A stretch of DNA of 64,000 bases from Escherichia phage HP3.2. A program made the translations under genes and the position numbers. The notes beneath the pieces are model-generated. The model was not told where the DNA came from. It saw only the letters and a program-made list of their open reading frames with translations, and did no database searches. The stretch lies in the sequence record OP978391.1; one strand, given 5' to 3'. Of the stretch, positions 51,341-54,717 are shown piece by piece; position 1 is the stretch's first letter; each line of letters begins with the position of its first letter.

Positions 51341-51814
51341 TTAATCATGTGTCCACACCCCATCGGTATTTGACCAAAGTCGCTGATTATCTGATCCTCG
51401 CCACAGCTTTTTGGTCGGAAGATTTTTCTCATACTTCCCATCAATAATAACATCAACATATTTAAGCATTTCTAGTTGTTTAATATCTTCAAACTTATAT
51501 CCTGTCCACAACCAAATGTCTTTCTCAGGAAATCTTGCTTTAACCCAAGAAACTAAATTTGAAATCTCTTCTCGGTTCTGTGGATAAAGTGGGTCACCAC
51601 CGGTTAAGGTAAGGCCTTGGATATACGATTTGCTTAAATGGGACGCAAGTTCTTTAACGGTATTCATAGTGAATAACTGTCCGTTACGAGCATTCCAAGT
51701 ACTACGATTATAACAACCTTCGCATTTATGCAAACATCCAGTGACGAAGAGAACGACCCTACATCCAGGGCCGTTAACGAAATCGCATGGATAAATTCTA
51801 TCATAATTCATCTT
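51341..51814 (-). CDS. nrdG: Anaerobic ribonucleotide reductase activating enzyme NrdG (radical SAM)
   Basis: Start MNYDRIYPCDF; CxxxCxxC cluster CLHKCEGC. Confidence 0.88.
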   Translation of the reverse strand, partial: KMNYDRIYPCDFVNGPGCRVVLFVTGCLHKCEGCYNRSTWNARNGQLFTMNTVKELASHLSKSYIQGLTLTGGDPLYPQNREEISNLVSWVKARFPEKDIWLWTGYKFEDIKQLEMLKYVDVIIDGKYEKNLPTKKLWRGSDNQRLWSNTDGVWTHD

Positions 51815-52433
51815 TATATTTCCAAGTATATCCCTTATGAATAGATTGAATTCCTTTGCAACATTTATAAACAGCAGAATGAAAAAATCCTGCATTTCTT
51901 ATTTCAGTTGCTCCAGTTAGTTCTATTGTATTTCCGTCTGGTGAATAGCCAATAACCGTTTTGGTGTTAAAGCGATTTCTAGAACTATTTTTGATATGCT
52001 CTTTATGACTAGTAGACAAAGTTCTTCCTGTTAGCCCATCAGATATCCTTTTTCCAAAATCATCAGGAAGAGTTACTTTAGACCTAGCTATGCTCATTAG
52101 CTTCTTAGTTTTATCGCTTCTTTTTGCGCCACGCTGATTTTCAAATTTCTTAGCTTTTGCATACGCGTATTGTGAAGAAGTAACTTTTCTATGCTTACTA
52201 TTACTCATTATCCAATATGCATCATACATCTTTCCACCATATATTTTAGCCAATAAATGGTGAGCAGTATAGTGGGCCTTATAAGTTAAAAATACTAAGT
52301 TGTCTAAATCATCTGAACCACCCATACTTCTTGGAATTATATGATGAAGTTCATACCCGGCTTTAGTTTGACGGGGCTTAGATGGGTGTTCAGCAGAATT
52401 AACTAGATTTGAATAGATTCTGTCATAATTCAT
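51801..52433 (-). CDS. HNH homing endonuclease (mob-type) inserted between nrdD and nrdG
   Basis: HNH motif ELHHIIPRSMGGSDDLDNLVFLTYKAHYTAHH; N-terminus MNYDRIY duplicates the nrdG start. Confidence 0.8.
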   Translation of the reverse strand: MNYDRIYSNLVNSAEHPSKPRQTKAGYELHHIIPRSMGGSDDLDNLVFLTYKAHYTAHHLLAKIYGGKMYDAYWIMSNSKHRKVTSSQYAYAKAKKFENQRGAKRSDKTKKLMSIARSKVTLPDDFGKRISDGLTGRTLSTSHKEHIKNSSRNRFNTKTVIGYSPDGNTIELTGATEIRNAGFFHSAVYKCCKGIQSIHKGYTWKYKDEL

Positions 52434-54247
52434 TGGTGTTTAACCCTATGCATGATTTCTTTATTTTTACCGAGATTAAATCCGCGTTCGTTCGGGTTTC
52501 CCAAATAACCGCATGTTCTTCTTATTGTGTTCATCTTTTTAGGATCAGTTTCTCCACAAATAGAACAAACAAACCCGTTTTCAGTAGGAGTCATTTCATG
52601 GGTACTTCCACACGTAAAACATTTATCTACTGGCATATTAACACCAAAATAATCTAAATGTTGTGCAGCATAATCCCATACAGCCTCAAGACCTTTTAAG
52701 TTATTTTTCATATCAGGAAGTTCAACATAAGAAATGTGACCACCTGTTGCAATGAAATGATACGGGGCTTCGCGAGAAATCTTTTCAAACGGAGTAATAT
52801 TTTCTTCTACTGAAACATGGAAACTGTTAGTGTACCAGCCTTTATCAGTAACATCCTTTACACTTCCATATTTTTCTGTATCAAGTTTACAGAAGCGATA
52901 GCAAAGGTTTTCAGCAGGAGTAGAATACAAGCTAAAAGCAAACCCAGTTCTTTCAGTCCACTGTTTAAGACGAGCATTCATTTTAGTTAAAATTTCCTGT
53001 CCAATATCACGACCGACAAGAATATTCAATTCGTGAATACCAATGTATCCTAAAGACACTGAACTTCTACCATTTTTAAATAACTCAATTATATCGTCAT
53101 CAGGTTTAAGACGAACCCCGAATGCACCTTCTTGGTAAAGAATAGGAGCAACAGTCGCTTTAACTCCTTTTAAGGAACTAATTCTACACATCAAAGCTTC
53201 AAAACATAAATCCATTCGCTCATTGAATAATTTAACAAATTTCTGTTCATTGAACTGTGTTCCAATATAAGAATCCAACGCAATACGAGGAAGATTCAGT
53301 GTTACAACACCAAGATTATTACGTCCATCAAGAATTTCATTACCAGTCGAATCTTTCCATACGCTCAAGAAACTACGGCAACCCATTGGAGAAACAGGAA
53401 CAGATGAACCAGTGATAGCTTTATTGTTCTTAGCTGAAATAATATCAGGATACATCCTTTTGCTTGCACACTCTAGAGCAAGCTGCTTAATATCATAGTT
53501 CGGATCGTCTTTATAAAGATTAACACCTTCTTCAACAAACATAACAAGCTTAGGGAAAATAGGAGTTATCCCATCACGACCAAGACCTTTAATACGATTT
53601 TTCAGAATTGCTTTCTGAATCATTCGTTCAGTCCAGTCAGTTCCCGTACCAAATGTAATTGTTACAAAAGGTGTTTGTCCGTTTGAACTAAAGAGAGTAT
53701 TTACTTCATATTCATAAGCTTGGAATGCATCGTATACGTCTTTTTCTGTTTTAGATTGAGCATAATTCAACGCATCAGCGATTTGCCATTTTTCTGCATC
53801 CTCAATATGTTTTGCATATGTGCGTTTAACATAAGGAGAAAGTACTTTATCTACATTCGCAAAAGTCGTTCCGCCATATTGATGGGAAGCAACCTGTGCA
53901 GTAATTTGTGCCATAATTGCAGTAGCAACACCGATTGATTTAGGAGTTTCAATCTGCGCATTACCAAGCTTAAATCCGTTCTCAAGCATTCCTTTTAAAT
54001 CTACTAAACAACAATTAGTAAATGGAAGAGCAGGGGAATAATCAATATCATGGAAATGAATAATTCCGCTTTCATGCGCTTTCATAATAAAAGACGGGAC
54101 CATATTTTTGGCAATGTGTTTAGACACAATACCAGCCATAAGGTCCCGTTGAGTTGGAAAAACACGAGAATCTTTATTAGCATTCTCGTTCAAAAGGTCT
54201 TTATTAGTTTTATGAATCAATCCTTCAATTTCTTTTTCAATTGTCAT
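52430..54247 (-). CDS. nrdD: Anaerobic ribonucleoside-triphosphate reductase NrdD, intronless
   Basis: 605 aa continuous ORF; matches T4 NrdD length. Confidence 0.93.
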   Translation of the reverse strand: MTIEKEIEGLIHKTNKDLLNENANKDSRVFPTQRDLMAGIVSKHIAKNMVPSFIMKAHESGIIHFHDIDYSPALPFTNCCLVDLKGMLENGFKLGNAQIETPKSIGVATAIMAQITAQVASHQYGGTTFANVDKVLSPYVKRTYAKHIEDAEKWQIADALNYAQSKTEKDVYDAFQAYEYEVNTLFSSNGQTPFVTITFGTGTDWTERMIQKAILKNRIKGLGRDGITPIFPKLVMFVEEGVNLYKDDPNYDIKQLALECASKRMYPDIISAKNNKAITGSSVPVSPMGCRSFLSVWKDSTGNEILDGRNNLGVVTLNLPRIALDSYIGTQFNEQKFVKLFNERMDLCFEALMCRISSLKGVKATVAPILYQEGAFGVRLKPDDDIIELFKNGRSSVSLGYIGIHELNILVGRDIGQEILTKMNARLKQWTERTGFAFSLYSTPAENLCYRFCKLDTEKYGSVKDVTDKGWYTNSFHVSVEENITPFEKISREAPYHFIATGGHISYVELPDMKNNLKGLEAVWDYAAQHLDYFGVNMPVDKCFTCGSTHEMTPTENGFVCSICGETDPKKMNTIRRTCGYLGNPNERGFNLGKNKEIMHRVKHQ

Positions 54248-54717
54248 TTTAAACTCTTTCTAAGCTGCTTCTTAAATGAAGCTATTAACTGTGTTTTAGT
54301 GTCAGATTCATTATATTCAAATCCTCTTTGAAGCATCTCAGCCATCATTTCCTCTTTTCCTAAACGAGAAAATTCCTTTGATTTATCTCCAATAAAGTTA
54401 GGGTGAATATTATTTTGGGTGTAATCGGATTTTAAATAAGTAAGTAAATTTTCTAACCATTCAAGATAATCAACACCTTGTCCCTTTAAGCCAGAACGAT
54501 TAAATTTATGCTTCATTTGACCTTCTGCGGCATTGCAGAGATTACAAAGCAATCCACGTACCTTTCCTGCTTTTGGTCCATTTAATTCATGATCATGGTC
54601 AAGGTGATTAGCTTGAACATCAGGATTTAGTTCTCGTTGGCAAATTAAGCATTTACCGTTTTGTGCATTATAAAATTTCTGTTTTTCTTCTTTGTATAAT
54701 TTGCCAGTCAATAACAT
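54244..54717 (-). CDS. 49: Endonuclease VII (gp49) Holliday junction resolvase
   Basis: 157 aa; zinc-binding Cys pairs and HNH-like LDHDHE motif. Confidence 0.82.
   Translation of the reverse strand: MLLTGKLYKEEKQKFYNAQNGKCLICQRELNPDVQANHLDHDHELNGPKAGKVRGLLCNLCNAAEGQMKHKFNRSGLKGQGVDYLEWLENLLTYLKSDYTQNNIHPNFIGDKSKEFSRLGKEEMMAEMLQRGFEYNESDTKTQLIASFKKQLRKSLK

Follow-up and report, generated by a model that had tools for sequence, protein, structure and literature searches.

The 64,000-nucleotide (nt) stretch of Escherichia phage HP3.2 analyzed here (sequence record OP978391.1, below called the window) carries an open reading frame (ORF) for an HNH endonuclease between nrdD and nrdG. This ORF is mobC of phage T4, a long-known gene, and represents no new kind of system. 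T4-type mobC is probably a free-standing homing gene, the start of which is natively like that of nrdG, yet is exchanged by recombination when the cassette moves. In sequence the window equals Escherichia phage HP3 (100 % identity), which is T4-like and belongs to the genus Tequatrovirus, and nrdD, the HNH ORF and nrdG all lie on its minus strand. The features concerned are the following.

51801..52433, minus strand: mobC, free-standing Mob-family HNH homing endonuclease gene, 210 amino acids (aa), assigned by identity to T4 mobC, locus and Pfam HNH
52430..54247, minus strand: nrdD, anaerobic ribonucleotide reductase (RNR) large subunit, 605 aa, no intron (Pfam NRDD, E 1e-171)
51341..51811, minus strand: nrdG, anaerobic RNR activase, 156 aa, start at 51811 (Pfam Fer4_12 and Radical_SAM)
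52413..52433, minus strand: repeat copy 1, mobC codons 1-7, ATGAATTATGACAGAATCTAT; its ATG overlaps the nrdD TGA (ATGA, 52433..52430)
51791..51811, minus strand: repeat copy 2, nrdG codons 1-7, ATGAATTATGATAGAATTTAT; it contains the mobC stop TGA (51803..51801)
51697..51811, minus strand: mobC-linked nrdG tract, nrdG nt 1 to ~115, at least 98 % identical only in records with mobC
51512..51691, minus strand: nrdG nt 121-300, Jiaodavirus-like segment, putative older co-conversion tract, from mismatch counts against Merci and RB51

The nrdD gene ends with ...CAC CAA TGA and the ATG of mobC shares its TG with this stop codon, giving a 4-nt ATGA overlap. A sequence-only reading of the window, made by a model from the letters and their ORFs, had described this overlap, a second overlap of the HNH gene with the nrdG start, and a free-standing homing endonuclease gene. 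All three descriptions were borne out, the gene being T4 mobC itself. The second overlap measures 11 nt once the nrdG start is corrected: the mobC stop (51803..51801) falls within ATGAATTATGA, in nrdG codons 3-4, and the true nrdG start is 51811, not the longer ORF start at 51895 that was found mechanically. The start at 51811 was chosen because T4, RB51 and ~30 other loci share both the length of 471 nt and the start MNYDRIY. Indeed, nrdG measures 471 nt in HP3, T4, RB51 and 30 IMG/VR loci, and all of these genes start with MN[YF]DR[IF]Y. The nrdG frame is open for 84 nt upstream of the real start, inside mobC (window 51811-51895, minus strand), for which reason some records (e.g. Wolf_ER13, L050:169-723) annotate an over-long nrdG of 555 nt. 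In other records (Ozark, SHFML-11) nrdG is annotated truncated.

The first 21 nt of mobC (ATGAATTATGACAGAATCTAT, 52433..52413) and of nrdG (ATGAATTATGATAGAATTTAT, 51811..51791) differ at 2 positions, and both encode MNYDRIY, as the sequence-only reading had noticed. No other site in the window comes within 3 mismatches of the 21-nt start pattern; shuffled sequence gives 0.01 such sites. A search of all 1.84 billion cluster representatives for the Mob family gave 13,297 matches at E ≤0.001, the best 148 of which were assessed. An N-terminus of the MNYxxIY type was found in 98 of these best 148 representatives, MNYQRIY and MNYQKIY being commonest. Position 4 of the 98 starts is Q in 48, K in 13, E in 13 and D in 2, and position 5 is K in 41 and R in 35 (R or K in 76/98). 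Over 116 family representatives position 3 is Y in 98 and F in none. Mob genes at unrelated loci (after nrdA, topoisomerase, gp2 and terS, and in ICP1) start with MNYQKIY, VNYEKIY, MNYQHIY, MNYQAIY and MNYEKIY, and metagenomic Mob homologues have the same kind of start in contexts from which nrdG is absent. One family member, P0069, located between the baseplate genes gp5 and gp6, starts exactly with MNYDRIY. In MobC the heptapeptide is followed by SNLVNSA, which fits the family register xxL[IV]xxA, so that no residues were added.

The NrdG start MN[YF]DR[IF]Y is native across T4-like phages, and even the T4-type mobE start matches that of nrdG at 17/21 nt. Six of the seven shared residues are thus to be expected without capture, only D4 being unusual (2/98). 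Because MNY[QEK][KR]IY is native to the Mob family and MN[YF]DRIY is native to NrdG, capture is not needed to explain the HP3 start, and the mobC start of HP3 appears for the most part not to be a captured nrdG copy. The proposal that the shared start is a signature of duplication or capture was therefore upheld in part: capture is seen in Jiaodavirus mobC and in a second endonuclease (both below), but the HP3/T4 repeat is no such signature, its start being native to the family. Nor does the likeness exceed what the N-terminus of the family itself explains, given 98/148 starts of the MNYxxIY type and MNYDRIY in P0069. The 'D-R' pair at positions 4-5, considered as proof of capture on the basis of 12-18 homologues, was ruled out as such, with R5 in 35/98 and MNYDRIY native elsewhere. 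For sequence-only reading this is a caution: where a repeat marks the boundary of an insertion, two protein families may simply happen to agree there, with no duplication involved.

Exchange of the start is seen in Klebsiella-infecting phages of the genus Jiaodavirus. Three of these, Boboto, Wolf and Shark, from two laboratories, carry mobC. Their nrdD is 72.9 % identical to that of HP3, and directly upstream of the mobC/nrdG position lies not nrdD but a DUF7415 ORF. Jiaodavirus Merci represents the empty allele, with an nrdG start ATGAATTTCGACAGAATCTACCC... encoding MNFDRIYPS. Over 633 nt the mobC of Boboto and Wolf differs from T4 mobC only at codon 3, by 2 nt (TAT to TTC); the mobC of Shark has the codon 3 change and four further silent changes. 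The resulting mobC start, ATGAATTTCGACAGAATCTA (MNFDRIY), equals the local empty-site nrdG start, and the sequence upstream of codon 3 is all recipient sequence, absent from the T4-type locus. The left crossover was placed within GACAGAATCTA (codons 4-7) because codon 3 and everything upstream of it are of recipient origin. On the right side, the nrdG of Boboto is T4-type from nt 1 to ~115, with 2 mismatches, and from nt 121 onward does not differ from that of Merci, and that of Wolf is T4-type to nt ~115 with a remainder equal to the local empty allele. From these left and right junctions it follows that the unit transferred here ran from about codon 4 of mobC into the 5' end of nrdG. In this transfer the old nrdG start of the recipient became the mobC start.

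The nrdG genes of T4 and HP3 are themselves mosaics. T4-type nrdG nt 1-120 at 98 % identity or more occurs only beside mobC, with complete linkage, so that this part is private to mobC-carrying genomes; nt 301-471 are of the Tequatrovirus type, T4 and RB51 differing at 1 position from nt 301 to the end. Between these two parts, nt 121-300 of T4/HP3 show 14/180 differences from Merci (92 % identity) and 79/180 from RB51 (56 %), which marks them as a likely old foreign tract beside mobC. A further arrangement was found in the SHFML-11 group. Here the flanks of mobC combine an nrdD end of the SegH type and a 16-nt remnant left from the ordinary nrdD end with a 'PCC' patch, likewise of the SegH type, in nrdG. 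A nearly invariant mobC core thus occurs in at least three flank contexts. In SHFML-11 (L044:1434-1447), and also in BEU50 (L053), the order is SegH-type nrdD end, 16-nt non-coding remnant, mobC. The SHFML-11 join lies at a 10-nt identity, CATGCATAGG, common to the SegH start (ATGCATAGG) and the ordinary nrdD codons 598-600 (MHR); this identity may be chance or another capture.

A second Mob-like endonuclease, of 278-279 aa, occupies the mobC site in 22 records of Tequatrovirus and 10 of Jiaodavirus (e.g. Ozark, L003:1002-1841, and SmallBear, L008:929-1765, both on the minus strand; also UFV-AREG1). Its gene starts with 13 nrdG codons that agree at 39/39 nt with the local empty alleles in each genus, after which its own sequence follows. 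A T6 paralogue between genes 47 and 46 has a different N-terminus. Judged from these alignments, the 278-279-aa enzyme is an unambiguous case of capture of the recipient nrdG start. Together with the Jiaodavirus mobC start ATGAATTTCGACAGAATCTA, the 39/39 nt in both genera agree with the expectation that the first codons of an endonuclease captured in this way track the recipient nrdG start across backbones. Like MobC, the 278-279-aa enzyme contains an HNH-type core (EAHHVLPKS...NIVNL...DHALAH), and its C-terminus (..GYNWKYINEL, then stop) is encoded within the nrdG start, in the register used by MobC. Unlike MobC, it holds 13 captured codons, not 7, in place of a different native N-terminus (that of the T6 paralogue), and only the ~60-aa HNH core of the two proteins aligns (38 % identity). 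Pfam recognizes an I-HmuI/NUMOD-like domain in its C-terminus. In Yersinia phage PST this enzyme is labelled 'mobC', although only its HNH core aligns with T4 MobC.

Empty-site alleles, the search for which the sequence-only reading had proposed, proved to be the majority state in relatives, so that the refuting case named there, relatives without any empty site, clearly does not apply. In RB51 the nrdD TGA directly overlaps the nrdG ATG, and the empty-site nrdG start occupies the position of repeat copy 1 in HP3. A 200-nt RB51-type nrdD/nrdG probe matched end to end, indicating an uninterrupted junction, in 567 phage records, against 31 records with mobC DNA, from about 17 natural isolates. 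The mobC sequences of all 31 are at least 99.2 % identical, and none lies between 60 % and 99 %. Empty alleles join the nrdD stop straight to the nrdG start, so that mobC is an insertion without intron sequence; relative to the empty allele, the insertion consists of the mobC ORF and a replaced nrdG start. The mobC ORF is intact at 8/8 loci examined, the aa changes seen being Y3F, S40P and S142N, none of them at invariant positions, and mobC is 99.5-100 % identical across backbones with nrdD 73-96 % identical. Footprints of mobC loss, in the form of empty sites with the T4-type nrdG tract, were not found. No endonuclease gene was present at nrdG in the 32 nrdG loci of IMG/VR (0 of 32), and a MobC search of IMG/VR gave one remote match only.

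The junction anatomy and the recombination history at mobC/nrdG are demonstrated by the compared sequences, and mobC shows clear genomic signs of recent homing. A mechanism may be proposed in which the mobile unit starts at about codon 4-8 of mobC and includes a replacement 5' end for nrdG, of ~115 nt or more. The first 21 nt of mobC happen to be homologous to the first 21 nt of nrdG, a coincidence between two protein families, and on entry of the cassette the left crossover could fall inside this stretch. The old nrdG start of the recipient, including an ATG that is coupled to the stop codon before it, would then become the mobC start, and the donor nrdG 5' end would supply the new nrdG start. 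MobC is presumed to cut genomes that lack mobC, within nrdG nt 1-115 or close by, after which double-strand-break repair would copy the cassette. T-even recipients would offer nrdD as left homology, and in recipients with a different upstream gene the 21-nt start homology would suffice. Translation of MobC would be coupled to nrdD termination via the ATGA, and ribosomes would re-initiate on nrdG at its ATG, which precedes the mobC stop by 8 nt.

A more far-reaching and more tentative idea, which at present falls somewhat short of an even chance, is that the chance match of the native Mob N-terminus MNYxRIY and the native NrdG N-terminus MNYDRIY serves as a built-in 21-nt left homology arm. Both arms of the cassette would then be nrdG sequence and the cassette would be portable. 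If so, mobC would home scarlessly and in frame into phages with an unrelated gene upstream of nrdG, and the transfer from Tequatrovirus to Jiaodavirus, from an Escherichia to a Klebsiella phage, would be such a case. MobC would moreover be currently active, cross genus boundaries and target the first ~115 nt of nrdG, and the nrdG 5' end would be a contested hot spot with at least three endonucleases replacing one another.

Several points weigh against homing by MobC and against the use of the shared start in it. The T4 mobile-element review lists the activity of MobC as not determined and its target as unknown (PMC2988022), and from the polymorphism patterns at the locus the MobC target site was not located. 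A left crossover within the 21 nt was demonstrated for one transfer lineage only, and the three Jiaodavirus phages, which share one junction, may go back to a single event. Within Tequatrovirus the long nrdD homology would normally form the left arm, so that the 21-nt arm may matter only rarely. The translational coupling of MobC is deduced from geometry only. The same review, which places mobC between nrdG and nrdD as a free-standing HNH gene, assigns to mobC an overlap of 24 bp with the ORF before it and a ribosome-binding site 27 nt upstream (PMC2988022). This overlap disagrees with the 4-nt overlap found here and in RefSeq; the family-conserved N-terminus and the current coordinates lead to the 4-nt ATGA overlap.

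Three other explanations were considered. The endonuclease might have come without its first 7 codons and have copied these from the nrdG initiation region at insertion, in a pure capture or target duplication. The match of 19/21 nt with MNYDRIY in both genes would fit this explanation, as would the rarity of D at position 4 in the Mob family (2/98). Moreover, T4 mobC codons 4-7 (GACAGAATCTAT) equal Jiaodavirus nrdG codons 4-7 at 11/12 nt, and the 278-279-aa endonuclease clearly holds 13 captured nrdG codons. Pure capture is nevertheless unlikely for mobC, in view of a native family start MNY[QEK][KR]IY followed by xxL[IV], with which MobC is exactly in register, without added residues, so that at most a like-for-like swap took place. 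It is further contradicted by P0069, which has MNYDRIY between baseplate genes, and by the MobC-like gene of KP27, which retains MNYQKIY beside nrdG. The opposite explanation, that the two families merely begin alike and that this similarity was never used in recombination or expression, agrees with N-termini native to each family, with the unrelated start of SegH at the same site, and with a 19/21 nt match that is unremarkable given identical peptides and AT-rich codon usage. It is regarded as very improbable, since Jiaodavirus mobC has the recipient codon 3, TTC/F being found in 0/116 family representatives, and since this codon is the sole difference over 633 nt in Boboto and Wolf, with upstream sequence that is all of recipient origin and lacking in the T4-type locus.

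It might also be supposed that mobC is defunct or domesticated, and that its patchy occurrence and the mosaics result from ordinary homologous recombination between T-even phages that infect together, or from mobilisation in trans by SegH or the 278-279-aa endonuclease, and not from cutting by MobC. The listing of MobC activity as not determined (PMC2988022) would agree with this, and PMC2790892 describes mobilisation of T4 I-TevIII in trans by MobE. Alleles of mobC do recombine with the 'PCC' patch of nrdG and, in the SHFML-11 group, with SegH-type flanks. However, a decaying remnant would be expected to have frameshifts and intermediate divergence. The ORF is intact at 8/8 loci, DNA identity in the 31 records is nowhere below 99.2 %, mobC keeps 99.5-100 % identity in backbones whose nrdD genes share 73-96 %, and the linkage to the private nrdG tract is complete. 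A defunct mobC is thus considered quite improbable. The native likeness of the two starts, followed by their exchange during homing, remains the favoured explanation.

The mobC ORF of HP3 agrees with T4 mobC at 632/633 nt and 209/210 aa (S142N), and neighbours and overlaps are alike. The match of MobC to Pfam HNH (PF01844) reaches 26.9 bits, above the cut-off of 21.4, and MobC has all invariant family columns (E28, H30, H31, P34, G38, G39, N45, H54 and H58). The T4 protein (NP_049689, formerly ORF 55.10) shares gene, locus, length and the ATGA and 11-nt overlaps with HP3 mobC; the presence of the I-TevII intron in T4 nrdD, absent from HP3 nrdD, is the only other difference. In the AlphaFold2 (AF2) model of MobC the N-terminal ~100 residues are confident and the C-terminal half has low confidence. 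Residues 3-12 form a confident helix, with a mean predicted local distance difference test (pLDDT) score of 92 over residues 1-10. The best structural match to this model is I-HmuI, the intron-encoded HNH nicking endonuclease of SPO1 (PDB 1u3e), whereas MobC is free-standing. The Foldseek match (E 4e-3, probability 1.0, 82 aligned columns) is weak and partial, with a template modelling (TM) score of 0.22-0.26.

T4 MobE, like MobC, belongs to the Mob family and is encoded by a promoter-less cassette in an RNR operon. Its N-terminus is of the MNYQKIY type (RB6 mobE), the same native type as that of MobC, and the mobE start overlaps the upstream stop as UAAUGA (PMC2988022). Unlike MobC, to which it is ~30 % identical, MobE targets nrdB, lies between nrdA and nrdB and has experimentally shown homing. 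The mobE start is unlike that of the downstream host gene, whereas the mobC start resembles that of nrdG. Signals for mobC expression were searched for at the sequence level. A scan for sigma-70 promoters and terminators gave nothing above shuffled expectation, and a search for the T4 late-promoter motif gave 1-mismatch matches only, none of them informative for mobC. One MotA-like box was found, within nrdG and uninformative for mobC, and no Shine-Dalgarno-like or promoter signal for mobC was decisive. No other Mob paralogues were found in the 64-kb window.

In related genomes the place of mobC is taken by the GIY-YIG gene segH (2022 preprint). SegH resembles MobC in its location at the nrdD/nrdG junction (PP01, ACG-C40, Pu-Krd-SF5) and in a stop codon that overlaps the nrdG ATG. 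It differs from MobC in belonging to an unrelated catalytic family, GIY-YIG, and in having a start of its own, MHRYYIIY, that overlaps a diverged nrdD 3' end. SegH co-converts ~70 nt of the nrdD 3' end, MobC the nrdG 5' end. The sibling phages Pu-Krd-SF5 (L058) and Pu-Krd-SF4 (L059), from one source, differ at the locus only by SegH and ~70 nt of recoded nrdD 3' end; in nrdG and the following 950 nt they agree completely. The pair points to a very recent gain or loss of SegH and suggests that SegH acts on the nrdD side. A patch reading 'IYPCCFVNG' in nrdG codons 6-19 (loci L003, L008, L041, L042, L044 and L051) consists of D10C at a conserved NrdG position and silent changes. It occurs with SegH (PP01, ACG-C40), with the 278-279-aa endonuclease and with some mobC alleles (Shark, SHFML-11 group), and is absent from SegH-carrying Pu-Krd-SF5 and from empty alleles. 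The patch may be a cleavage-immunity variant.

In KP27 (Slopekvirus; L006:2501-3142) a MobC-like gene, 44 % identical, is located directly upstream of nrdG, with nrdD 1.5 kb away, and keeps MNYQKIY, a native start. In KP27 nrdG the first 21 nt (ATGAATTATATTAGAATTTAT) resemble the T4 mobC-linked start and not the Slopekvirus-like empty alleles (ATGAACTTTGACCGCATCTAC).

The genomic evidence suggests that MobC, listed as an uncharacterised T4 endonuclease, is or recently was mobile, also from one phage genus to another with a different host, and it makes nrdG nt 1 to ~115 the candidate region for the MobC target. It also suggests how a junction may be preserved: a selfish gene at a translationally coupled junction takes the old start codon and delivers a replacement, which would keep both host genes and the selfish gene expressed. 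The new content is modest: the start is accounted for by coincidence plus exchange, a transfer between genera is described, and the linked nrdG tract becomes a candidate target. The SegH/Hef paper of Sandegren et al. from 2005 is the primary source on the mobC/segH locus and lies outside the coverage of this analysis, within which the other papers naming mobC do no more than cite the gene or give its position again.

Gene 49 (endonuclease VII; window 54244-54717, minus strand) overlaps the nrdD start by 4 nt, and the genes in this part of the window overlap one another in a chain, with probable translational coupling. The nrdD of HP3 is uninterrupted and that of T4 holds a group I intron with I-TevII, so that the T4 match falls into two pieces and is ~1 kb longer. 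Phage 215Ecol030PP is of intermediate length in the nrdD region.

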